Shown: one piece after another, positions 3,271 to 10,495 of the stretch
Layout of the letters: every line of letters starts with the position of its first letter
Numbering within the stretch: the stretch's first letter is position 1
NCBI GenBank assembly: GCA_964510165.1
Contig: CAZEBC010000144.1
Location: 1 to 10,495 of the forward strand
DNA: 10,495 nt
Source: an uncultured bacterium
GTDB lineage: Bacteria > Abyssobacteria > SURF-5
Direction of reading: 5' to 3'
The notes under the pieces: generated by a model
Databases searched by the model: none
The model's input: the letters and a program-made list of their open reading frames with translations, nothing else
What the model was told of the DNA's origin: nothing
Translations under genes and position numbers: made by a program

Positions 3271-3342
3271 ATGGTGCAATCGGCCGGGCAATGGGGGCGC
3301 CCCGATTGGTTTTTGGCGCCTGGGACACGAGAAGTAGAACTG

Positions 3343-3834
3343 ATGGAATACAAACGAGCGATCCTGAATTTCAGCTTTGTAGTCCCGAATGCGCTGGCGG
3401 GAATGGCGCGCCCTGGCGTAATAGACTTATTAGCCGAAGATCTGCAATTTCTGAAAGGGGAAGGAATCAGGGCGATCGTGTCATTATCCGAGACTCCGCT
3501 TGAGGGGGACGCCGTTCGCCGGAGCGGATTGGAGTATTTACACGTTCCGGTGGATGATTTCACTGCGCCTGATTTGGAGAGTGTGGAGCGATGCATCGAT
3601 TTTGTCGAGAGGATGCTGCTCATAGAGAACAAGCCGGTGGCAATTCACTGTGGGGCGGGTTGCGGTCGCACCGGCACCATGTTGGCCTGTTATTTCGTCA
3701 AACAGGGTAAGACGGCCGAAGAGGCCATAGATCATTTGAGGTCGCTGAGGCCTTGTTCCATAGAGACTGAAGGCCAGAAGGCTTTGGTATACCGATACGA
3801 GGAACATCTGAAGTATCGTTCGTCCACGGATTGA
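3343..3834 (+). CDS. Cys-dependent dual-specificity / protein-tyrosine phosphatase family protein (about 163 aa)
   Basis: P-loop HCGAGCGRTG (CX5R), general-acid loop VPVDDFTAP, N-terminal NFSFV..LAGMARPG, C-terminal RPCSIETEGQ. Start set at ATG 3343 because ATG 3271 directly abuts the -10 box and would lie upstream of the transcription start. Confidence 0.92.
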   Translation: MEYKRAILNFSFVVPNALAGMARPGVIDLLAEDLQFLKGEGIRAIVSLSETPLEGDAVRRSGLEYLHVPVDDFTAPDLESVERCIDFVERMLLIENKPVAIHCGAGCGRTGTMLACYFVKQGKTAEEAIDHLRSLRPCSIETEGQKALVYRYEEHLKYRSSTD

Positions 3835-4328
3835 GATTGAACCGCGATTTGTCCTTTGCAGAGACCAGGACCCCCAGATTTCTTGCCGACAATATGTTGG
3901 GCCGTCTTGCCAAGTGGCTCAGGATTCTCGGATACGACACGGAATATGCATTCGACGCCTCCGACTCCGATCTCATCGCGCAGGCCCAATCGGAGGGCAG
4001 GATTCTGCTGACTCGCGACACTTCGTTGATACGTCGGAAGGAGTGTCGCAACTATATTTTCATCAGGAGCGATCACTGGCGCGAGCAATTGCGGCAGGTT
4101 TATGAAGAGGCAGGGCTCAACTGTGACTCGCTTCTCACAAGATGCGTGGTCTGTAATGCCCGGCTCAAAGCCGTGGATAAGCAATCCGTCGAGTCGGTCG
4201 TTTTTCCGTATGTCTACAAGACTCAGGAGCGGTTTTTCAAATGCGATCATTGTTCCCGCATATTCTGGCCGGCCACGCACGTGAGCCGCATCATTGATGA
4301 GATCAACAACTTGAAGGAGGATTCATGA
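3831..4328 (+). CDS. Mut7-C RNase domain protein (PIN-like fold with C-terminal zinc ribbon)
   Basis: FLADNMLGRLAKWLRILGYDT, EGRILLTRD, TRCVVCN...FFKCDHCSRIFWPATH are characteristic Mut7-C motifs; TTG start overlaps the upstream stop (exact start uncertain). Confidence 0.92.
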   Translation: MRLNRDLSFAETRTPRFLADNMLGRLAKWLRILGYDTEYAFDASDSDLIAQAQSEGRILLTRDTSLIRRKECRNYIFIRSDHWREQLRQVYEEAGLNCDSLLTRCVVCNARLKAVDKQSVESVVFPYVYKTQERFFKCDHCSRIFWPATHVSRIIDEINNLKEDS

Positions 4329-5950
4329 AAGGGATGAGGTTATTCTCGGGCTTGCTAGCCTTGACGGTTGCGCTTCTTGTCGGGTGTGCCCAGCGCGAGA
4401 ACGGGAATGCGACGGCCGAGCCTCAGACGCCGCAGCCGCGAGCGGCTCAACCGCAAGCGACGCAACCCGGCGCAATCGAGACGGAAGCGCCTCCGGAGGT
4501 GATTCGACCCTCGGTCTCGGGGATGTTTTATTCCTCCGATGCAGACACCCTAAGGTCCAACATAAGGCGTTATCTTGAACAGGCAGAGAAACGAGAGATT
4601 GACGGCGAAATCGTGGCGGTTCTTGTTCCGCATGCCGGGTACCAGTATTCGGGCCCTGTGGCGGCCCATGCGTATAAGGCCATCGCGGACGATGTCCGAA
4701 GAAGGAAACCGGAAGAACGACCCGAAGCGGTGGTTGTGCTTGCGTTCAGCCACAGGAGCGACTATGCCGGAGTCTCAGTGTATTACAAGGGGGCGATGGA
4801 AACCCCGCTTGGACGCGCGCATGTGCATGAGCGGATAGCCCGGGAATTGATGGCCAGCGATTCGTGTTTCTCTTTTTCTGAACGTGTTTTTGCGGGCGAG
4901 CATTCGGCAGAAGTGCAGATACCATTTCTTCAGGTGGTTCTGCCCGACGTGCCGCTGGTTCCAGTGGTTTTCGGACGGCAAAACGTTGGCAACATCGAGG
5001 CGGTCTCCAAGGGTTTGACGAAAGTCGCCGAGAAGAATCGAATTGTCCTTGTGGCGACGACAGACCTGTCCCATTTTCATCCGTACGATGCCGCAAATTC
5101 CATGGATTCCGAGATAGTTCAATCAATCTTAAGAGGCAGTCCTCGGGAGATGGCTGCCTTTATTGACCAGAATTATGGACGGATGCATGGGCCGTGCGGG
5201 CCGGGTCCGGTGCTTGCGGTGCTCTCGTATGCCGAGAGTCTGGGGGCGGCGCCAGTGTTATTGAAATACGCGAACTCAGGCGATGTCACGGGAGACAAAG
5301 GGGCGGTTGTCGGATACGCGGCAATTGCGTTCGTGAGGAAGAAGGATAGCGGAGAGAAAGCGGCAAAATCCGCGGTTGAAGAGATCCAGACCGAATCCTT
5401 TTCTCTCAGCGAAGAGGACAAGAAGACACTGCTCAAGCTTGCGCGCATTTCGCTGGAGTCGTTTATAAGGGAGGGCCGTATGGTGGAGATCGCCCCGCCC
5501 TCAAGCAAGGCGCTGACAGAGAATGGGGCGGCCTTTGTCACATTGCACAAGGCCGGGAACTTGCGCGGCTGCATCGGGAGCATGGAGGCGAGAGCGCCGC
5601 TGTACCAGACCGTCATGCGAATGGCGGTTGCGGCTGGCACGGAGGACCCGCGGTTTCCGCCCGTTCGTCCCGAAGAATTGGACGACATTCACATTGAGGT
5701 GTCGGTGAACACGCCGTTGAGAGAAGTGTCGGGCGCGGACGAGGTCATTCTTGGAACGCACGGTGTCGTAGTCGAGAAGGGATTTCGCCGTGGCGTCTTC
5801 TTGCCGCAGGTAGCCACGGAGACGGGCTGGACGAAGGAGGAATTCCTGGGGAATCTCTGTGTTCACAAGGCGGGGCTGCCAGCCGACGCGTACAAGAAGG
5901 ATGCGAAGCTGTATGTGTTTTCATCGATCATCTTTGAAGAGGAGCGGTAG
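4325..5950 (+). CDS. amrB: AmmeMemoRadiSam system protein B (MEMO1-like) fused to protein A (AMMECR1-like), with N-terminal lipoprotein signal peptide
   Basis: MEMO motifs RPSVSGMFY, PHAGYQYSG, EHSAEVQIPFLQ, TDLSHF, CGPGP, NSGD..VVGY; AMMECR1 motifs AFVTL..LRGCIG, DPRFPP, GVFLPQV, KAGL from about 5404; lipobox LVGC (Cys21); SD AAGGAGG; ATGA overlap with the Mut7-C gene. Confidence 0.93.
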   Translation: MKGMRLFSGLLALTVALLVGCAQRENGNATAEPQTPQPRAAQPQATQPGAIETEAPPEVIRPSVSGMFYSSDADTLRSNIRRYLEQAEKREIDGEIVAVLVPHAGYQYSGPVAAHAYKAIADDVRRRKPEERPEAVVVLAFSHRSDYAGVSVYYKGAMETPLGRAHVHERIARELMASDSCFSFSERVFAGEHSAEVQIPFLQVVLPDVPLVPVVFGRQNVGNIEAVSKGLTKVAEKNRIVLVATTDLSHFHPYDAANSMDSEIVQSILRGSPREMAAFIDQNYGRMHGPCGPGPVLAVLSYAESLGAAPVLLKYANSGDVTGDKGAVVGYAAIAFVRKKDSGEKAAKSAVEEIQTESFSLSEEDKKTLLKLARISLESFIREGRMVEIAPPSSKALTENGAAFVTLHKAGNLRGCIGSMEARAPLYQTVMRMAVAAGTEDPRFPPVRPEELDDIHIEVSVNTPLREVSGADEVILGTHGVVVEKGFRRGVFLPQVATETGWTKEEFLGNLCVHKAGLPADAYKKDAKLYVFSSIIFEEER

Positions 5951-6036: not shown

Positions 6037-6133
6037 TTATTCGTAAATCGTACCTGAAACAGTCTCCACGCCGCAAGTCCCCATGGAAAAAGCGCGAAAG
6101 AATTCTCGCCGAACGGCTCAGGAGCCGCCCACC

Positions 6134-6508
6134 GTGAGAAGGACAATTCTGGTGATTGACAGCGATCCCATCGTAGGAGAGTTGTTGCGCGGCTATCTGG
6201 CGCAACAGAAGGGATTCCAGCTTTTCGAGAGTAAGGCTGGCGCCGAGGGGATTGAGGCGGCGGTCAGGCATTTGCCCGACGTCATTTTTCTTGGGTTCAG
6301 ACTCGATGATATGGGTGGTCTCGAAGCCCACGAAGCGCTTAGGCAGAATCCTGTCACGAAGGACATCCCGGTCATTTACGTATCTTCATTCTTCACGCTT
6401 CGAACCGTCGAAAAGGCAACGGTGAAAGGAGCGAAGGGCTTCATCAGCCGGCCCTTCACCATCTCCAAGATACACAATAAGCTGAACACGGTCCTCGGCC
6501 CCTCTTAA
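6134..6508 (+). CDS. Single-domain response regulator receiver (CheY-like), atypical / pseudo-receiver
   Basis: Receiver fold pattern ILVIDSD...PDVIFLG...MGG...TKDIPVIYVS...GAKGFISRPF. GTG 6134 has SD AGGAG 9 nt upstream; ATG 6083 (track) has no SD but remains an alternative. Confidence 0.88.
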   Translation: MRRTILVIDSDPIVGELLRGYLAQQKGFQLFESKAGAEGIEAAVRHLPDVIFLGFRLDDMGGLEAHEALRQNPVTKDIPVIYVSSFFTLRTVEKATVKGAKGFISRPFTISKIHNKLNTVLGPS

Positions 6509-7194
6509 GTTGTTGCTACATTTCCGCATTCCGAAGTTGAGCGATTCCGGAGCAAGGTTTCAATCGCATCGTGCCGGATGGGGATACCCTTCACGCATCT
6601 GCACTGATTACAATTCTCACACTTTTCGATCCCAAGGGAGACTGCCTGAGCGAGTCGATCCATCTCGTCGCGGGGGTCAAGATGAAGCTGGGCAAGCCTC
6701 ACAAAGACGTATGGCCCACCGAAGCTCTCGTCTTGCCATCTGAAATGCGGACAGCTCGATACGCAACCATAACACTCAAGGCAGCCGATCAGGTGTTTGT
6801 AAGTCTGCGAAATCGGCAGCGGACCAAGCGTCTGCTTAACGGTCGGCCATACAAAGAGCTTCAATTCGGAAATCCTGGAGTCCAGGACGGACCTGTCCAC
6901 GATGAGGTCCCGCAGGGGGGGCAGATTCTTGAGAGGCGAGATTCTCATTTGTTCATGAGCGCTGGTGGCGCATGCGAGGCGAGGGATTCCGTCGACGTTC
7001 AGCGCGCATTCTCCGCACTTAACGCATCGGCAGCCGAACCTGAAGGCAAGCGTCGAGTCATATTCTTCATAGATATACAGCAAGGCTTGGAGGACGGTTG
7101 TCCCCTTTCCCATCGGGACATCATAGCTTTGCGTCTCGAACGTGCCTGATTCTGGCACGTAGCGTTCAATATGCACGTTTCCGCTCGACATCAC
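6505..7194 (-). CDS. Succinate dehydrogenase/fumarate reductase-type iron-sulfur subunit (SdhB/FrdB/TfrB-like)
   Basis: [2Fe-2S] motif CRCVKCGEC...LAC, PLKNLPPLRDLIVD, CLECYGCVSSCP, CENCNQCRC; start (GTG 7194 or ATG 7191) overlaps the flavoprotein stop. Confidence 0.9.
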   Translation of the reverse strand: MMSSGNVHIERYVPESGTFETQSYDVPMGKGTTVLQALLYIYEEYDSTLAFRFGCRCVKCGECALNVDGIPRLACATSAHEQMRISPLKNLPPLRDLIVDRSVLDSRISELKLFVWPTVKQTLGPLPISQTYKHLIGCLECYGCVSSCPHFRWQDESFGGPYVFVRLAQLHLDPRDEMDRLAQAVSLGIEKCENCNQCRCVKGIPIRHDAIETLLRNRSTSECGNVATT

Positions 7195-9002
7195 GCGTCT
7201 TCTCCGAGGTTCAATCGGGCATCAAGGATTCTTGCCTGTGTCTTGCGAGGTAGGGCGCTCAAGATCACGAACTGGATGCGCTCTCTGAGCGGGTTTGGGC
7301 CGCCCCGCGCATCGAGTCGAACCTTCGAGAGGGCGACATCCTCGGTCCCGACTGAAATCCTGCCGTCCTTCATGGATACGAGGACATTCTTGAGCCACTT
7401 CTTGTTGTTTCGGTTCGGATAATCCAGTCTGACATGGCCTCCCCGAGATTCCTCACGTGCGAGGGCAGAACGAGCAAGCGCTTCGGCGGTGCACAGCATC
7501 TTCTCAAGCTCGATTGCGTCAAGCCATTCGGGATTGCACTCTCGTCGCGCGGCAATTCTCATGTCGTTTGAAAGGGCGCGTATCTCAAGTATCTCTGAGA
7601 TGGCGGATTCGAGCCCAGTTCTATCGCGGATGGGGCCGACCTTGTCCCACATTGTTCTTTGGAGCCTGCGGATGAGTTCGATTGGCCTGTAACGGCCGGA
7701 TTGGCCGAGGAATCTCTCGGCAATGGAGCAGAATTCTGGTTCGGCTTCTGGGAAGGACATATGCGGCGCGTTTTTCGCCGCCAGTTCACCGGCGAGACGC
7801 CCAAAAATGAAAAGTTCGGCCAGGGAGGTCGAGCCGATGCGGTTAGCGCCGTGCAGCCCGCCCTGCACCTCTCCGACGGCGAAGAGGTTCTTGAGGCCTT
7901 TAACACGGCAATCGGGATTAACTCTGACGCCGCCCATCTGATAGTGAGCCGTTGGAAATACATCCCACGGGACCTTTCCCTGAGCGGCTTCTTCGCCGTA
8001 GGCCCGGCGGATCGAATCCGTCATGGAGGGAAACGTACTCTTGAGGAAATCGAACATCTTGGCGCCGAGCACCCTGCGCAGATTGGGGGAGAGGTCAAGG
8101 AGCATGCCGCCATATTCAGTCGCCCGGCCTTGCTCTTTAGCGAGGGACATGGCGGCGGCGACTTCTGCCCTGGTTCTGGTTCGAACATTGGATAGTATGA
8201 GGCGCCGTTTCGTGTCGAGGAGTCTGCCGTAGGGACCCGCTATTGCAGGCTCACCGCAGACGATTCCGATCATGGAATCGGGATGCGTAAGGGCGAAGGG
8301 GATGAATTGCTGATGCTCCATGTCGAGCAGTTCAGCGCCGGCCATAAGCGCCAGGGCATAGCCGTCACCTGTTACGGTGCGCATGTTGCTGGTGTGGGGA
8401 TAGAACAGCCAACCCAAGCCGCCGGTCGCGAGAATCGTCTGTTTGGCGGAAACGGCCAGCATCTCGCCGGTGAGCCATTGCAGGCAAAGCGCGCCTGCCA
8501 CTTCATTTCCGCATTGTAGGAGCCGCAGAACGACTGTCTCGTCGAGCACGCGCACGCCGGTTCGCGCGGCGGCGCTTCGGAGTGCCGTGCCGATGGGAAC
8601 GCCTTCGGAATAACCCGGCAGAGTGCGAGGGATACTGTGACCGCCGAGCGGGATGGGCAAGGGGGCGAGCTCCCCCGATTTCTTGCGGGCGAAGGTAAGC
8701 CCGAACTTCTCCATCAAGTCGGTTGCGCGATGCGCGCGCTCACAGAATCGCTCCACCAGAGATTGGTCGTTTAGGAACTCTCCCCCCACGACCATGTCGC
8801 GCATCAAGTTTTCCGGGGAGTCCCTAGGGGAAATGTTGGGGTGCAGAACGAGACCGCCCGCTATTCGGGTGTTGCCACAACCGTACGGCGCTTTCGAGAC
8901 CAGGAGCACTTGTGCGCCCGCCTGTGCGGCGGTTGCGGCGGCAACGATTCCCGCGCCGCCCCCGCCGATGCAGAGGACGTCGCATTGAAGATTCTTGATC
9001 AT
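7191..9002 (-). CDS. SdhA/FrdA/NadB-family FAD-binding oxidoreductase subunit, probably non-covalent FAD, substrate uncertain
   Basis: IGGGGAG, LATGG, TSN..TGDG, DME.QQF.P, PTAHYQMGG, GE..GGLHGANRIG, REESRGGHVRLDYP motifs. Confidence 0.92.
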   Translation of the reverse strand: MIKNLQCDVLCIGGGGAGIVAAATAAQAGAQVLLVSKAPYGCGNTRIAGGLVLHPNISPRDSPENLMRDMVVGGEFLNDQSLVERFCERAHRATDLMEKFGLTFARKKSGELAPLPIPLGGHSIPRTLPGYSEGVPIGTALRSAAARTGVRVLDETVVLRLLQCGNEVAGALCLQWLTGEMLAVSAKQTILATGGLGWLFYPHTSNMRTVTGDGYALALMAGAELLDMEHQQFIPFALTHPDSMIGIVCGEPAIAGPYGRLLDTKRRLILSNVRTRTRAEVAAAMSLAKEQGRATEYGGMLLDLSPNLRRVLGAKMFDFLKSTFPSMTDSIRRAYGEEAAQGKVPWDVFPTAHYQMGGVRVNPDCRVKGLKNLFAVGEVQGGLHGANRIGSTSLAELFIFGRLAGELAAKNAPHMSFPEAEPEFCSIAERFLGQSGRYRPIELIRRLQRTMWDKVGPIRDRTGLESAISEILEIRALSNDMRIAARRECNPEWLDAIELEKMLCTAEALARSALAREESRGGHVRLDYPNRNNKKWLKNVLVSMKDGRISVGTEDVALSKVRLDARGGPNPLRERIQFVILSALPRKTQARILDARLNLGEDA

Positions 9003-9008
9003 CAGGAA

Positions 9009-9350
9009 CTATTCTATCTCGATTTCCTTGACAGCCAGTTCCAGGCCTTCGATGACGTCAATGTCTTTCGACTGGCATTGCGGACAGAGGAACTTGAGGT
9101 CCTGCACCATAAAGATGTCCTCGCAGGATTTGCACTTCGCCTTTATCGGGACTTTCTCGACATCGAGCTTTGCGCCTTCGGCGGGCGTGTCCTTTGTGAT
9201 GAACTCGAAGAAGAAGGAGAGTTGGTCGGGAACGATGCCGCGAAGTTCGCCCGCGCGGATGCGGACGATCCTTATCTTGCGCGCGCCGTTTTTCGCGGCT
9301 TCGGCGAGGGTTATCCTCAGGATGCTCTGGGCGATTGACATTTCGTGCAT
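9009..9350 (-). CDS. hypA: Hydrogenase maturation nickel metallochaperone HypA
   Basis: N-terminal MHE Ni-binding motif, GEL..IVPDQLSFFF, CKSC...CPQC zinc site, G.EL.VKEIEIE C-terminus, 113 aa. Confidence 0.96.
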   Translation of the reverse strand: MHEMSIAQSILRITLAEAAKNGARKIRIVRIRAGELRGIVPDQLSFFFEFITKDTPAEGAKLDVEKVPIKAKCKSCEDIFMVQDLKFLCPQCQSKDIDVIEGLELAVKEIEIE

Positions 9351-9361
9351 AGTGCGTCTTT

Positions 9362-10429
9362 CTACCGGTTTCGTTTTTCCTGCATTATGGAGGACATCAG
9401 GTCGCGGAAGTTGCTTTTTGGGGGTTCGATTTGTTCACGGCGGATCATAGAGAGTGACTCAGTGGGGCAGACCATGTTGCAGAGGCCGCAGCCCAAACAC
9501 TTTTCGGGGTCAACCTCGGCGACCTCATTGACCGTCAGCGCGCCGAAATGGCAGCGGGCCACACAGGCCTCACATGCGACGCAGGTTTCGGCGTCGATGC
9601 TGACGACGAAATGGGATGTTGCGACCGCGTGGGGTTTGTGGAGCCGGGTGATTCCGCCGAGGATCCCGCAACAGCACCCGCAGCAATTGCAGATGAAGTT
9701 TATATGTTTCTGGGTATTATCGGAGAGGTGCACGAGCCCTTCCTGCTCCGACTTGTCAAGCACCTTGTAGGCCTCGTCTTTGGTTATCCGGCGCCCAAAG
9801 CCGCGCTCGACGACAAACTTTGCGAACGGCCCAAACTGGAGGCACACATCTTTGGACCTGCCGCAGGATTTTCCCAACAGTTCCATCTCGTGGCGGCAAT
9901 AACATGTTGCCAGGGCAAGGTAGTCGGCCTCTTCGATGAATTTCGATACCATCTCGTAAGGAAACACCTGGACGCCGCTCGGGATTTCCTTTTCCATGAC
10001 AAGCACCCGGGCCATTTGAGTTTTTGATGAAAACATGTTCTCGCCCCAACCACTGGTGTACATTTCTTCGAACAGCGCAGCCAGTTCCCGCGTTCTCTCG
10101 GTGACCTCGCCCTTCATGAACTGTAGTTCGAAAATGCCCGGCAATAGCGGTAGAATGCTGTAATGGTCCACGCCGTCCCGAACCCGGTGATACACAAGCC
10201 CTTTGTCGGCCATCGACTCGAGAATGGGTTTCAGCTGCGAATCATCCATCCCGATTGTTTCGCAGATTGAGGGTAGGGGAGTAGGAAGCATCGGAAGCTC
10301 GGCGCCCACCTTGGCTTGCTCGGCGGTAAAGAGCGCCTTCAGCAATTCGATGAATTTCTCGCTCAGAGGCGCACCCGCCGGGAATTGGTTGAGCTTGTCG
10401 ATCAGACGAGCGTAAATGCTCCGCGTCAT
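9362..10429 (-). CDS. Cys-rich 4Fe-4S binding protein (about 355 aa): HTH-like N-terminus, CxCR...CNCCGCCC central domain, C-terminal 2x[4Fe-4S] ferredoxin
   Basis: CVACEACVARC and CLGCGLCNMVCP ferredoxin motifs; central ATCYCRH, GLVH, ICNCCGCCCGIL; SD AGGAGG 6 nt upstream of ATG 10429 favours it over 10456. Confidence 0.88.
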   Translation of the reverse strand: MTRSIYARLIDKLNQFPAGAPLSEKFIELLKALFTAEQAKVGAELPMLPTPLPSICETIGMDDSQLKPILESMADKGLVYHRVRDGVDHYSILPLLPGIFELQFMKGEVTERTRELAALFEEMYTSGWGENMFSSKTQMARVLVMEKEIPSGVQVFPYEMVSKFIEEADYLALATCYCRHEMELLGKSCGRSKDVCLQFGPFAKFVVERGFGRRITKDEAYKVLDKSEQEGLVHLSDNTQKHINFICNCCGCCCGILGGITRLHKPHAVATSHFVVSIDAETCVACEACVARCHFGALTVNEVAEVDPEKCLGCGLCNMVCPTESLSMIRREQIEPPKSNFRDLMSSIMQEKRNR

Positions 10430-10439
10430 TGTGATCCTC

Positions 10440-10495
10440 CTAGGATTGGTTTCCAAGATTAAATTTGGGCCAGCGGTTCCAGTCGCCGTTCATCT
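10440..10495 (-). CDS. Possible 3' end of an upstream gene of the same operon (truncated by the window edge)
   Basis: One frame reads ...MNGDWNRWPKFNLGNQS* with TAG overlapping the next gene's SD (TAGGAGG); another frame ends in TAA at 10459-10461. No promoter visible. Frame and identity unresolved. Confidence 0.3.
   Translation of the reverse strand, partial: MNGDWNRWPKFNLGNQS

Follow-up and report, generated by a model that had tools for sequence, protein, structure and literature searches.

A Memo-AMMECR1 fusion protein with an export signal, and a predicted twin-arginine AmrS as its candidate partner

The DNA analysed here, referred to as the window, is a stretch of 10,495 nucleotides from an uncultured bacterium. 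It contains a series of overlapping genes, all on the + strand. An ORF resembling dual-specificity phosphatases (DSP; 3271..3834) overlaps by 4 nt a Mut7-C ORF with a PIN-like domain and a Zn-ribbon (3831..4328). The stop codon of the Mut7-C ORF (TGA, 4326-4328) in turn overlaps the ATG at 4325 of the next ORF, which results in an ATGA overlap. This next ORF (4325-5950, 541 aa) encodes a fusion of AmrB (Memo) and AmrA (AMMECR1), as identified from its translation and from profile searches. A Shine-Dalgarno box, AGGAGG, is read in the sequence at 4315..4320, 4 nt 5' of the ATG. Downstream of the fusion lies a stand-alone response-regulator receiver gene (6083..6508), which is retained in 7 of 8 loci of the same family. 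A search of sequencing runs lists 5 DNA data sets from 3 studies, and no RNA data set, that hold this DNA.

The N-terminus of the fusion is a predicted Sec/SPII signal peptide (residues 1-20; 4325..4384). It comprises the n-region MKGMR, an h-region from L6 to V19, and the lipobox L18-V19-G20. Cys21 (codon TGT, 4385..4387), at which the mature protein is predicted to begin and to be lipidated, follows directly, and residues 22-30 read AQRENGNAT. The PROSITE PS51257-type lipobox rule is [LVI][ASTVI][GAS]-C, with the cysteine at positions 15-35 and a K or R within the first 7 residues. The fusion has L18-V19-G20-C21, K2 and R5 within its first 7 residues, no D, E, R, or K in the h-region, and a peak 9-residue hydropathy of 2.94. 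The lipobox rule is satisfied by 51 of the 4530 ORFs of at least 200 aa in the source genome, and by 660 of 100000 shuffles of fusion residues 2-40. A lone lipobox match is thus an event of about 1%, and significance beyond chance comes from conservation in relatives. The source genome has lspA (104.5 bits, cut-off 73.95) and lgt (163.8 bits, cut-off 118.9), which are adjacent on one contig (C91), as well as tatC (184.8 bits, cut-off 132.7) and bamA.

The signal is followed by a Pro/Gln-rich tether (residues 22-60; 4388..4504), which is disordered according to the AlphaFold2 pLDDT values. Residues 31-57 of the tether are AEPQTPQPRAAQPQATQPGAIETEAPP, of which 31-34 form the conserved motif AEP(Q). 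Then comes EVIRPSVSGMFY, where the Memo domain begins. The AlphaFold2 model has a helix at residues 3-21, pLDDT values below 50 at 23-38 and 48-52 and above 90 in both domains, and a low-confidence inter-domain linker at residues 343-358 (5351..5398).

The Memo/AmrB domain covers residues 62-334 (4508..5326) and matches PF01875 with 180.8 bits (cut-off 27), while the AMMECR1/AmrA domain covers residues 370-537 (5432..5935) and matches PF01871 with 177.3 bits (cut-off 25). The corresponding NCBIfam profiles are TIGR04336 for AmrB (244.1 bits, cut-off 26) and TIGR04335 for AmrA (175.1 bits, cut-off 99). The cut-off of the equivalog NF001987, 'MEMO1 family protein', is not reached (202.6 bits, cut-off 295). 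The Memo residues H103, H143, D247, H250, and C291 are intact, as are R414-G-C416-I-G418 and D441-x-R443-F444 of AMMECR1, which belong to the RGChG and DxRa motifs defined in PMC2034487. An alignment of 40 sequences has P102-H103-A104-G105, H143, D247, H250, C291-G292, L413, G415-C416, G418, D441, and R443-F444 as invariant positions. The earlier note, made from the DNA letters, had described the MKGMR start, the hydrophobic core, L-V-G-C21, and the Pro/Gln linker, and had considered the MEMO site residues and the AMMECR1 motif to be intact; all of these are present. Its placement of the fusion in a different compartment from its two operon partners also holds, with no signal peptide in either the DSP-like or the Mut7-C ORF.

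Signals were classed in the relatives by rule-based scripts that use hydropathy, lipobox, and extension length. A hydrophobic N-terminal signal precedes the Memo domain in 124 of the 150 best 50%-identity representatives, and 59 of these 124 have a lipobox. Of the remaining 26, 15 have an extension of less than 15 aa, 6 have an extension lacking a hydrophobic stretch, and 5 are N-truncated. The signal is found in 99 of the 120 closest fusion clusters and in all 8 same-family orthologues. Of the 18 closest homologues, 13 have a cysteine aligned with Cys21, but in the 8 family orthologues the lipobox is clear in 4 and ambiguous in 1, and the remaining 3 have a signal without the cysteine. The RR motif is rare in fusions (4/150 representatives, 6/120 closest clusters). 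Because signals are kept and the cysteine occurs in only about half of the close orthologues, export appears to be conserved and the lipid anchor optional. At the level of sequence, it is confirmed that this MEMO1/AMMECR1-related two-enzyme fusion bears a genuine export and lipid-anchor signal, and the predicted export of both domains is supported by conservation. Of the earlier proposal that both domains are exported and membrane-anchored, the first part is supported, whereas the lipid anchor appears not to be generally conserved. The survey of lipoboxes in homologues that it called for likewise has a mixed outcome, with a frequent lipobox in the wider set and a clear one in only half of the family.

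The profiles of Pfam and NCBIfam detect no radical SAM gene in the 10.5-kb window, and AmrS is encoded on other contigs of the source genome. Two AmrS proteins exceed the TIGR04337 cut-off of 220 bits, one on contig C122 (415.9-417.6 bits) and one on contig C142 (355 bits). The N-terminus of the C122 protein is MSGMFRRDFLVKTGAAAAGVGGGLAAYWWL, and includes the canonical twin-arginine signal FRRDFLVK. The motif F-R-R-D-F-L-V-K is followed by the moderately hydrophobic TGAAAAGVGGGLAAYWWL, which together with the encoded TatC makes this AmrS a predicted Tat substrate. Among its 120 closest homologues, 95 have RR with a hydrophobic stretch and 5 more have KR or RK. An alignment of 34 homologues with 58-86% identity has R6 and R7 as invariant positions, and C70, C73, C77, C351, C354, C376, and C379 are invariant in it as well. 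The homologues of this Tat-type AmrS include proteins of the anammox lineages Brocadiales and Scalindua. The AmrS on C142 has no signal, and neither has an AmrA and AmrB pair on contig C227, which shares 41% identity with the AMMECR1 domain and 29% with the Memo domain of the fusion. The idea in the earlier note that export or the lipobox goes with the absence of amrS is contradicted, as this genome has two amrS genes, one of them with a twin-arginine signal, and exported fusions elsewhere adjoin signal-bearing AmrS.

The exported fusion and the Tat-type AmrS probably constitute an extracytoplasmic duplicate of the AmmeMemoRadiSam system, with a substrate in the envelope and not RNA. The fusion would be made as a Sec precursor. 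Following established lipoprotein biogenesis, Lgt would lipidate Cys21 and LspA would cleave between G20 and C21. The mature fusion would then be held to a membrane by the disordered tether (about 39 residues) and lie in the periplasm of a diderm cell. The other half of the exported system would be the AmrS of contig C122, which would leave the cytoplasm via Tat. The Fe-S clusters of AmrS are inserted in the cytoplasm, which accounts for a twin-arginine signal rather than a Sec signal. The use of Tat for the Fe-S enzyme and of Sec for the fusion matches this cofactor logic. The signal-less set, AmrA and AmrB on C227 with AmrS on C142, would serve the cytoplasm. With unaltered catalytic residues in both domains, the exported system probably performs the chemistry of its cytoplasmic counterpart. 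Its substrate would be a molecule of the envelope or periplasm, be it a peptide, a small metabolite, or a lipid or isoprenoid. An RNA-modification role would conflict with such a location, as the earlier note had also reasoned. The signals and their conservation, the paralogous sets, and the genes for export machinery are seen in the sequences, and from them we infer actual export, the partnership of the two exported proteins, and the class of substrate. As AmrS lies outside the window, the proposed partnership of the C122 gene with the fusion gene on contig C144 is drawn from co-occurrence only. A structure prediction for the complex of mature AmrS (50-389) with the mature fusion (61-541) came out without an answer (score 0.00, mark 0.32), which counts neither for nor against the pairing.

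The pairing of the two genes in other phyla bears on this partnership and on the leading alternative. According to the latter, the fusion is exported and anchored but needs no radical SAM partner. It would be a self-contained periplasmic metal or redox enzyme or a binding protein, the direction in which the earlier note leaned, and the Tat-type AmrS of C122 would serve another process. This is unlikely, although several observations agree with it. No amrS is present in the window, and AmrS is absent among the four ORFs on either side of the fusion in 42 of 69 loci from other phyla, and within about 5 kb in 49 of 80. In the family of the source genome, the Tat-type AmrS is instead flanked by a Tat-signal DUF362 gene on one side and an HAE3/MMPL transporter gene on the other. 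Two loci from other phyla, L040 and L059, have a lipobox fusion beside an AmrS without an N-terminal extension, as confirmed in the upstream sequence. Against it, AmrS is still by far the commonest neighbour of the fusion, in 27 of the 69 loci. Exclusion of 5 fragments leaves 22 usable loci, and among these an automatic rule classes 14 as signal/signal and 3 as none/none for fusion and AmrS. The ambiguous loci are L025, with an RR motif by eye, L033, and L037. AmrS is signal-bearing in 14 of the 16 usable loci with a signal-class fusion and an AmrS classed as signal or no-extension. Furthermore, 8 of 9 family genomes have the fusion and 8 of 9 the Tat-type AmrS, and an independent gain of signals by two parts of a three-part system in the same lineages would be a coincidence.

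The co-variation of the fusion and AmrS signals has a Fisher p of 0.0015 with relatedness ignored. There are only 2 phylogenetically independent contrasts, of which 1 is concordant, 0 are opposite, and 1 has no difference. The Fisher value was therefore set aside as strong evidence of co-variation, and the case for an exported pair is built on prevalence. On the AmrS tree, the signal state needs 4 changes compared to a shuffled mean of 12.1 (0/500 shuffles as low), and the signal-less second AmrS copies of relatives form a separate branch. Of 7 loci with an unfused Memo and AMMECR1 pair, 6 have the pair without signals. The AmrS N-termini are Sec-like rather than Tat-like in six loci, of which five carry the title Omnitrophota and one (L060) Planctomycetales, and this is hard to square with an Fe-S enzyme. 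The DUF362 and HAE3/MMPL genes were dropped as general components, as they are kept within the family only and occur in 0 of 80 other loci.

A further alternative considers the N-terminal segment as a membrane tether of a wholly or partly cytoplasmic protein, by means of an uncleaved anchor or an internal start at M67. The protein would take part in RNA-base modification with the RNase-like Mut7-C and the phosphatase as partners. In each of the 8 fusion-bearing genomes of the same family, the gene immediately upstream of the fusion is Mut7-C, with the ATGA overlap here. In PMC6393860, a row of Table 1 connects archaeal AMMECR1 with a 'PIN- and Zn ribbon' protein, which has the same architecture as the Mut7-C ORF. 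The signal-less, translationally coupled, and conserved upstream Mut7-C, along with this row, hints at a shared cytoplasmic role related to nucleic acids. The canonical AmmeMemoRadiSam system is treated as cytoplasmic, and PMC2034487 predicts RNA base modification with a radical SAM enzyme; the terms 'signal peptide', 'secreted', 'periplasm', 'lipoprotein', 'twin-arginine', and 'extracellular' do not occur in that paper. The public gene call that begins at M67 and the 3 of 8 orthologues without the lipobox cysteine also fit a protein kept on the cytoplasmic side. However, none of the loci examined in other bacteria has this linkage. Memo/AMMECR1 adjoins Mut7-C in none of 22 loci of other bacterial families, and neither Mut7-C nor the DSP phosphatase adjoins the fusion in any of the 80 loci from other phyla. 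Despite their tight linkage within the family, these two genes were thus rejected as general parts of the system. The positive-inside rule is an established basis for the prediction of topology from flanking charges. K2 and R5 before the hydrophobic core and a neutral or acidic stretch after it predict a topology with the C-terminus out. The canonical lipobox recurs in nearly half of the signal-bearing representatives, a start at M67 lacks a Shine-Dalgarno box and would cut into the Memo domain, and the Tat signal on the candidate partner AmrS makes sense for export only. A cytoplasmic-side protein is accordingly rather improbable.

It is very improbable that the first 66 codons are untranslated, with an ordinary cytoplasmic AmrB-AmrA fusion starting at M67 and a signal that arose by chance: the database gene call P0004 (475 aa, 100% identical) begins there and a lipobox match has the background described above, but the AGGAGG box and ATGA coupling are at 4325, only GGGG abuts the ATG of M67, the Memo profile match opens at residue 62 and would lose 5 residues, and homologues with 55-73% identity show protein-level conservation of the signal, of the Cys column, and of the AEP(Q) motif, the last of which indicates that the linker region is translated.

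The proposed exported pair can be compared with known systems. AmmeMemoRadiSam is a predicted three-protein system (TIGR04335 AmrA, TIGR04336 AmrB, TIGR04337 AmrS). Both domains of the fusion are above the cut-offs with intact motifs, and AmrS is present in the genome. In contrast to that system, B and A are fused here and carry a lipoprotein signal and a disordered tether, and the candidate AmrS has a Tat signal and lies on another contig. The three-gene neighbourhood is thus not found at this locus, whereas AmrS adjacency occurs in the 27 loci from other phyla. Human MEMO1 and the archaeal AMMECR1 homologues are intracellular. Unlike the fusion, they are separate, single-domain proteins. MEMO1 (PDB 3BCZ, 7KQ8) matches fusion residues 63-268 (phmmer 9e-10), belongs to the same family, and has the same putative metal-site residues. 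The archaeal AMMECR1 homologue PH0010 (1VAJ) matches fusion residues 359-540 (phmmer 1.2e-33) and has the same Cys motifs; MM0484 (1ZQ7) and ST0229 (1WSC) are also in the family of the fusion AMMECR1 domain. The main survey of the Memo families is reportedly that of Burroughs et al. 2019 (J Biol Chem 294:10211), which may already describe secreted forms.

AmrS shares an RRxFLK-type motif and a weakly hydrophobic, Gly/Ala-rich stretch with Tat-exported cofactor enzymes such as Rieske proteins, hydrogenase small subunits, and the DMSO-reductase family. Like the Tat-exported Fe-S enzymes, it must obtain its Fe-S clusters before export, and TatC is encoded in the genome. Unlike them, it is a radical SAM protein that needs SAM and a strong reductant. 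In the literature that was searched, no paper describes a periplasmic radical SAM enzyme or one that is exported by Tat. The nearest characterised relatives of AmrS are in the family of PflA, the pyruvate formate-lyase activating enzyme (PDB 3C8F). After TIGR04337, the best NCBIfam matches of the Tat-type AmrS are the glycyl-radical activases YjjW, PflA, and NrdG, and PflA is the only match among PDB sequences (2.7e-05). AmrS resembles PflA distantly and has additional Cys motifs towards both termini, to which the seven invariant cysteines listed above belong, and no glycyl-radical enzyme partner is evident.

The conservation of MEMO1 and AMMECR1 extends from archaea to humans, and both have links to human disease. 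In a broader and more tentative reading of the sequences, many bacterial phyla may possess a complete radical-SAM-dependent system outside the cytoplasm, consisting of a Tat-exported AmrS and a Sec-exported, often lipid-anchored Memo-AMMECR1 fusion. Since SAM and a suitable reductant are not known outside the cytoplasm, a Tat-targeted radical SAM enzyme would surprise enzymologists; that the periplasm has no known supply of SAM or of a low-potential reductant weighs against the exported pair. If the reading is true, SAM and reducing power might reach the periplasm. AmrS might instead take pre-bound SAM through Tat and act once, in the manner of an activase, on the Memo-AMMECR1 protein or on the substrate. 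As a third option, SAM might be a regenerated cofactor of AmrS. The chemistry of Memo and AMMECR1, including that of the human disease-linked proteins, would then not be tied to RNA, and its target would be a kind of molecule present on both sides of the membrane, for example an isoprenoid lipid or a peptide. Export signals on both proteins and on their candidate radical SAM partner, in a widespread form, would narrow the possible substrates and would argue against RNA or nucleotides for the exported form. The exported form would also be tractable, with periplasmic proteins, a defined compartment, and pairs of cytoplasmic and exported paralogues in one genome. The public gene call clips the signal of the fusion, and such forms are therefore easily missed in annotation-based surveys. 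The tether of the fusion has an insertion of about 12 residues, which in the alignment is specific to its own lineage.

The AmrB-AmrA fusion is encoded by an ORF of 541 aa (4325-5950, plus strand) and has two domains by profile search. The Memo/AmrB domain covers residues 62-334 (PF01875, 180.8 bits; TIGR04336, 244.1 bits against a cut-off of 26), and the AMMECR1/AmrA domain covers residues 370-537 (PF01871, 177.3 bits; TIGR04335, 175.1 bits against a cut-off of 99). The putative MEMO metal-site and AMMECR1 residues, described as intact in the earlier note, are all present, and PHAG-His103, SH-His143, D247-L-S-H250, C291-G, and L-R-G-C416-I-G are invariant across the 40-sequence fusion alignment. 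By score and motifs the fusion belongs to the AmrB and AmrA families. It is not a MEMO1 equivalog, as that profile gives 202.6 bits, below the required 295.

The translated N-terminus reads MKGMRLFSGLLALTVALLVGC21AQRENGNAT, followed by AEPQTPQPRAAQPQATQPGAIETEAPP, and matches exactly the lipobox and linker first read there. The n-region draws its charges from K2 and R5, the hydrophobic core L6-V19 is uncharged, and the lipobox L18-V19-G20-C21 has the textbook form. The start codon is well supported, because AGGAGG lies in the Shine-Dalgarno position (4315-4320, 4 bases 5' of the ATG) and the upstream ORF stop shares bases with the start in an ATGA overlap. In the AlphaFold2 model, built on the 40-sequence alignment and with a mean pLDDT of 89.9, residues 3-21 form a helix and both domains are predicted confidently; confidence is very low at 23-38 and 48-52, and low again in a second linker at 343-358. 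The protein thus runs from a signal peptide through a flexible tether to Memo, and on through a linker to AMMECR1.

A lipobox could arise by chance. Under a PROSITE-type rule it is found in 51 of the 4530 ORFs of at least 200 aa in the same genome and in 660 of 100000 shuffles of fusion residues 2-40. A lone match is thus a roughly 1% event, and the weight rests on conservation. Of the 120 nearest clusters at 90% identity, 99 carry a hydrophobic N-terminal segment ahead of the Memo domain, 23 of them with a lipobox; the remaining 21 comprise 11 with an extension shorter than 15 residues, 5 with a non-hydrophobic extension, and 5 that are N-truncated. The best 150 50%-identity representatives, 149 of them fused, include 124 with the segment, and a lipobox occurs in 59 of these (a strict rule identifies 44, and a relaxed rule the other 15). 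The other 26 have short extensions (15), other extensions (6), or truncations (5). The N-truncated entries include P0004 (475 aa, 100% identical, starting at M67), the sole form of the fusion in the public collection. Its lack of the signal peptide and tether indicates that gene callers clip such signals, so annotation-based surveys would undercount exported forms.

Fusion orthologues are present in eight of the nine other same-family genomes at 59-63% identity, and each of the eight bears an N-terminal signal. The lipobox is clear in four (FVGC, LVGC, FVGC, FAAC) and ambiguous in one, and the signals of the other three lack a Cys. In 13 of the 18 closest homologues the lipobox Cys aligns in a single column. 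The conserved trait of the family thus appears to be export, with a predicted lipid anchor that comes and goes, and the fusion is very probably exported. Of the proposal that it is exported and membrane-anchored, the first half agrees with the conserved signals, while the anchor seems optional. In the same 18 homologues an AEP(Q) motif about 10 residues past the lipobox Cys (residues 31-34, 4415-4426 in the window) is widely kept despite the variable linker, and may be a recognition or processing site. An insertion of about 12 residues in the linker is private to the window sequence.

The earlier suggestion that exported forms go with the absence of amrS does not hold for this genome, which has two genes for AmrS, the radical SAM component, over the TIGR04337 cut-off, on contigs C122 (417.6 bits) and C142 (355 bits). 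One is predicted to be Tat-targeted: the C122 protein (389 aa) begins with MSGMFRRDFLVKTGAAAAGVGGGLAAYWWL, which combines a twin-arginine consensus with a weakly hydrophobic Gly/Ala-rich stretch, as is typical of Tat signals. Its best 120 homologues comprise 95 with RR and a hydrophobic stretch, 5 with KR or RK and such a stretch, 2 with the stretch only, 10 with other extensions (several visibly clipped), 7 without an extension, and 1 without the landmark Cys motif. R6 and R7 are invariant in 34 homologues of 58-86% identity. Source names include Abyssubacteria, Brocadiales and Scalindua, Planctomycetota, and Acidobacteriota. In the fusions RR motifs are rare (4 of 150 representatives, 6 of 120 closest clusters). 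Tat on AmrS and Sec on the fusion follow cofactor logic, since AmrS must receive its Fe-S clusters in the cytoplasm, and this split argues against a compositional artefact. The earlier interpretation is supported once two points are corrected: the anchor is optional rather than fixed, and amrS, rather than being absent, encodes a predicted Tat-targeted enzyme.

The machinery is encoded in the genome, with lspA and lgt adjacent on contig C91, tatC on C94, and bamA on C14, all scoring above curated cut-offs. The cell is diderm with a periplasm. The genome also holds paralogous sets. The exported-type pair consists of the fusion and the C122 AmrS. On C227 a signal-less AmrA (200 aa) adjoins a signal-less AmrB, 41% and 29% identical to the respective fusion domains. 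The C142 AmrS is 41% identical to the Tat copy and its N-terminus extends into a masked stretch; its orthologues in two relatives (L127, L128) lack a signal. Eight of nine family genomes encode Tat-type AmrS orthologues of 72-76% identity, whose alignments start at residue 1-4; G004, the ninth, carries a different AmrS of the Tat type. Most family genomes with the Tat type also have a signal-less copy of 41-45% identity. An AmrS subtype in G004 (L119) and G009 (L125), 43-45% identical to the C122 copy, has a twin-arginine signal beginning TRREFA, so more than one lineage of Tat-targeted AmrS exists within the family. A third Memo-family paralogue (407 aa, C233, L009:1459-2682, minus strand; TIGR04336, 118.1 bits) is extended at its N-terminus by about 130 residues and lacks both a signal and a nearby AMMECR1 partner.

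The scan of species-representative genomes yielded 599 relatives; 80 loci were retained, and a simple ORF caller gave a Memo ORF in 69. By an automatic rule, 51 of these fusions have a signal, 13 have none, and 5 are unclear. AmrS is the commonest neighbour within four ORFs (27 of 69 loci); 5 of these ORFs are fragments, leaving 22 usable. By the same rule both proteins bear a signal in 14 loci (AmrS 8 Tat-like, 6 Sec-like) and neither in 3. L025 shows SRRQLL by eye, L033 and L037 are ambiguous, and L040 and L059 are discordant, with a lipobox fusion beside an AmrS that starts at its Cys motif, as the sequence further upstream confirmed. A signal-less fusion beside a signal-bearing AmrS was found in none of the 22. 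Where Memo and AMMECR1 are separate genes, both lack a signal in six of seven loci. On a FastTree of 75 AmrS domains without their N-termini, signal state requires 4 changes; shuffled states average 12.1, and none of 500 shuffles reaches a count as small. The relatives' signal-less second copies form their own branch, and in a Bacteroidales group the signal is lost on AmrS and absent on the fusion too. The Fisher p of 0.0015 for fusion against AmrS signal overstates the case, as only two phylogenetically independent contrasts exist, one concordant and one without difference. The Sec-like AmrS N-termini of L014, L017, L026, L043, L060, and L064 (five titled Omnitrophota; L060 Planctomycetales) are strongly hydrophobic, with AxA-like sites and no RR, and do not fit an Fe-S enzyme.

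The sequences themselves show conserved signals, unbroken catalytic motifs, genes for the machinery, and paralogous sets; the steps of the proposed mechanism follow established lipoprotein and Tat biology. The fusion would be exported unfolded via Sec, Lgt would modify C21, and LspA would cleave after G20, leaving the mature protein tethered by a flexible linker of about 39 residues and loaded with metal in the periplasm. AmrS would be exported by Tat, folded and cluster-loaded, and co-occurrence suggests that the two act together. AmrS may bring SAM through Tat and act once, comparable to the glycyl-radical activases, its nearest characterised relatives in sequence searches; SAM may serve as a regenerated cofactor; or SAM may be supplied across the membrane. 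The full explanation, including the partnership of the fusion with Tat-AmrS, is moderately favoured.

Burroughs and colleagues are said to have tied Memo, in 2019, to nucleotide-base and isoprenoid modification. The three genes of the AmmeMemoRadiSam system do not share one neighbourhood in this genome. Across the literature searched, the term AmmeMemoRadiSam appears a single time in each of six papers. Balaji and Aravind 2007 (PMC2034487) assigned AMMECR1 a predicted role in RNA base modification, in concert with a radical SAM enzyme and with a protein resembling dioxygenases, and noted fusions; none of six export-related terms appears in their paper. The available part of Kaur et al. 2020 (PMC7159879) merely cites 'Memo-Ammecr1 systems'. 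In two literature matches, radical SAM was a neighbouring gene in a figure legend, and the Tat signal belonged to a reporter construct described under methods. The literature searched yielded no account of an exported radical SAM enzyme or of a signal-bearing AMMECR1. The fusion and its candidate partner are read as a probable extracytoplasmic form of a system that is already known, though not characterised; it counts as new with the reservation that Burroughs et al. 2019 may mention secreted Memo forms.

The two upstream ORFs, a phosphatase-like ORF (3271-3834) and a Mut7-C ORF (3831-4328; PIN-like matches and visible CxxC pairs), lack signals, and the latter is translationally coupled to the fusion. 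The compartment conflict with these operon partners, raised at first reading, is thus real. Mut7-C lies directly upstream in all eight family genomes with the fusion (split in one), beside none of 80 fusion loci outside the family, and a Memo/AMMECR1 link is absent from 22 Mut7-C loci of other bacterial families. For archaea, Table 1 of Makarova et al. 2019 (PMC6393860) records a link between AMMECR1 and a protein described by its 'PIN- and Zn ribbon domains', the same architecture as the window's Mut7-C as far as the table describes it; we infer that the arCOG of that row is Mut7-C. The linkage recurs here even for an AMMECR1 domain preceded by an export signal. A response regulator follows the fusion in seven of eight family loci, with an SdhB-like gene next to it in several. 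Downstream of the fusion, the minus strand (6505-10456) encodes an SdhB/TfrB-like iron-sulfur protein, a flavoprotein of the SdhA/TfrA-like kind, and a protein with a 4Fe-4S ferredoxin domain.

In other phyla, a 720-840-aa protein whose weak aminopropyltransferase (spermidine-synthase-like) domain is set among about 10-15 predicted membrane spans adjoins the fusion in 17 loci (L027:2586-5105 and 16 others), all among the 51 with signal-bearing fusions. Its homologue in the window's genome (C64:15732-17972, L131; 30% identity) lies apart from any amr gene and adjoins a 429-aa ORF of membrane-permease-like appearance. A DsbD_2/CcdA-like membrane protein occurs in eight loci (L064:6481-7128 and seven others; seven titled Omnitrophota, one Planctomycetales), all with signal-bearing fusions. 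Such proteins move reducing equivalents across the membrane. Both neighbours are no more than leads for a possible periplasmic supply of SAM-related compounds or reducing power.

Directly upstream of Tat-AmrS on C122, a gene (L001:2686-3813, minus strand) encodes a DUF362 protein (PF04015, 75.3 bits) that itself bears a twin-arginine motif, TRRRFLEY; the pair is kept in six of eight family loci and is missing from all 80 of those in other phyla. In most family loci, Tat-AmrS also has a convergent neighbour that encodes an HAE3/MMPL-type RND transporter (C122, L130:7922-10255, plus strand). The transporter contains a sterol-sensing-like domain and weakly resembles HpnN, a hopanoid transporter (94.9 bits, well short of the cut-off), and may hint at a lipid link.
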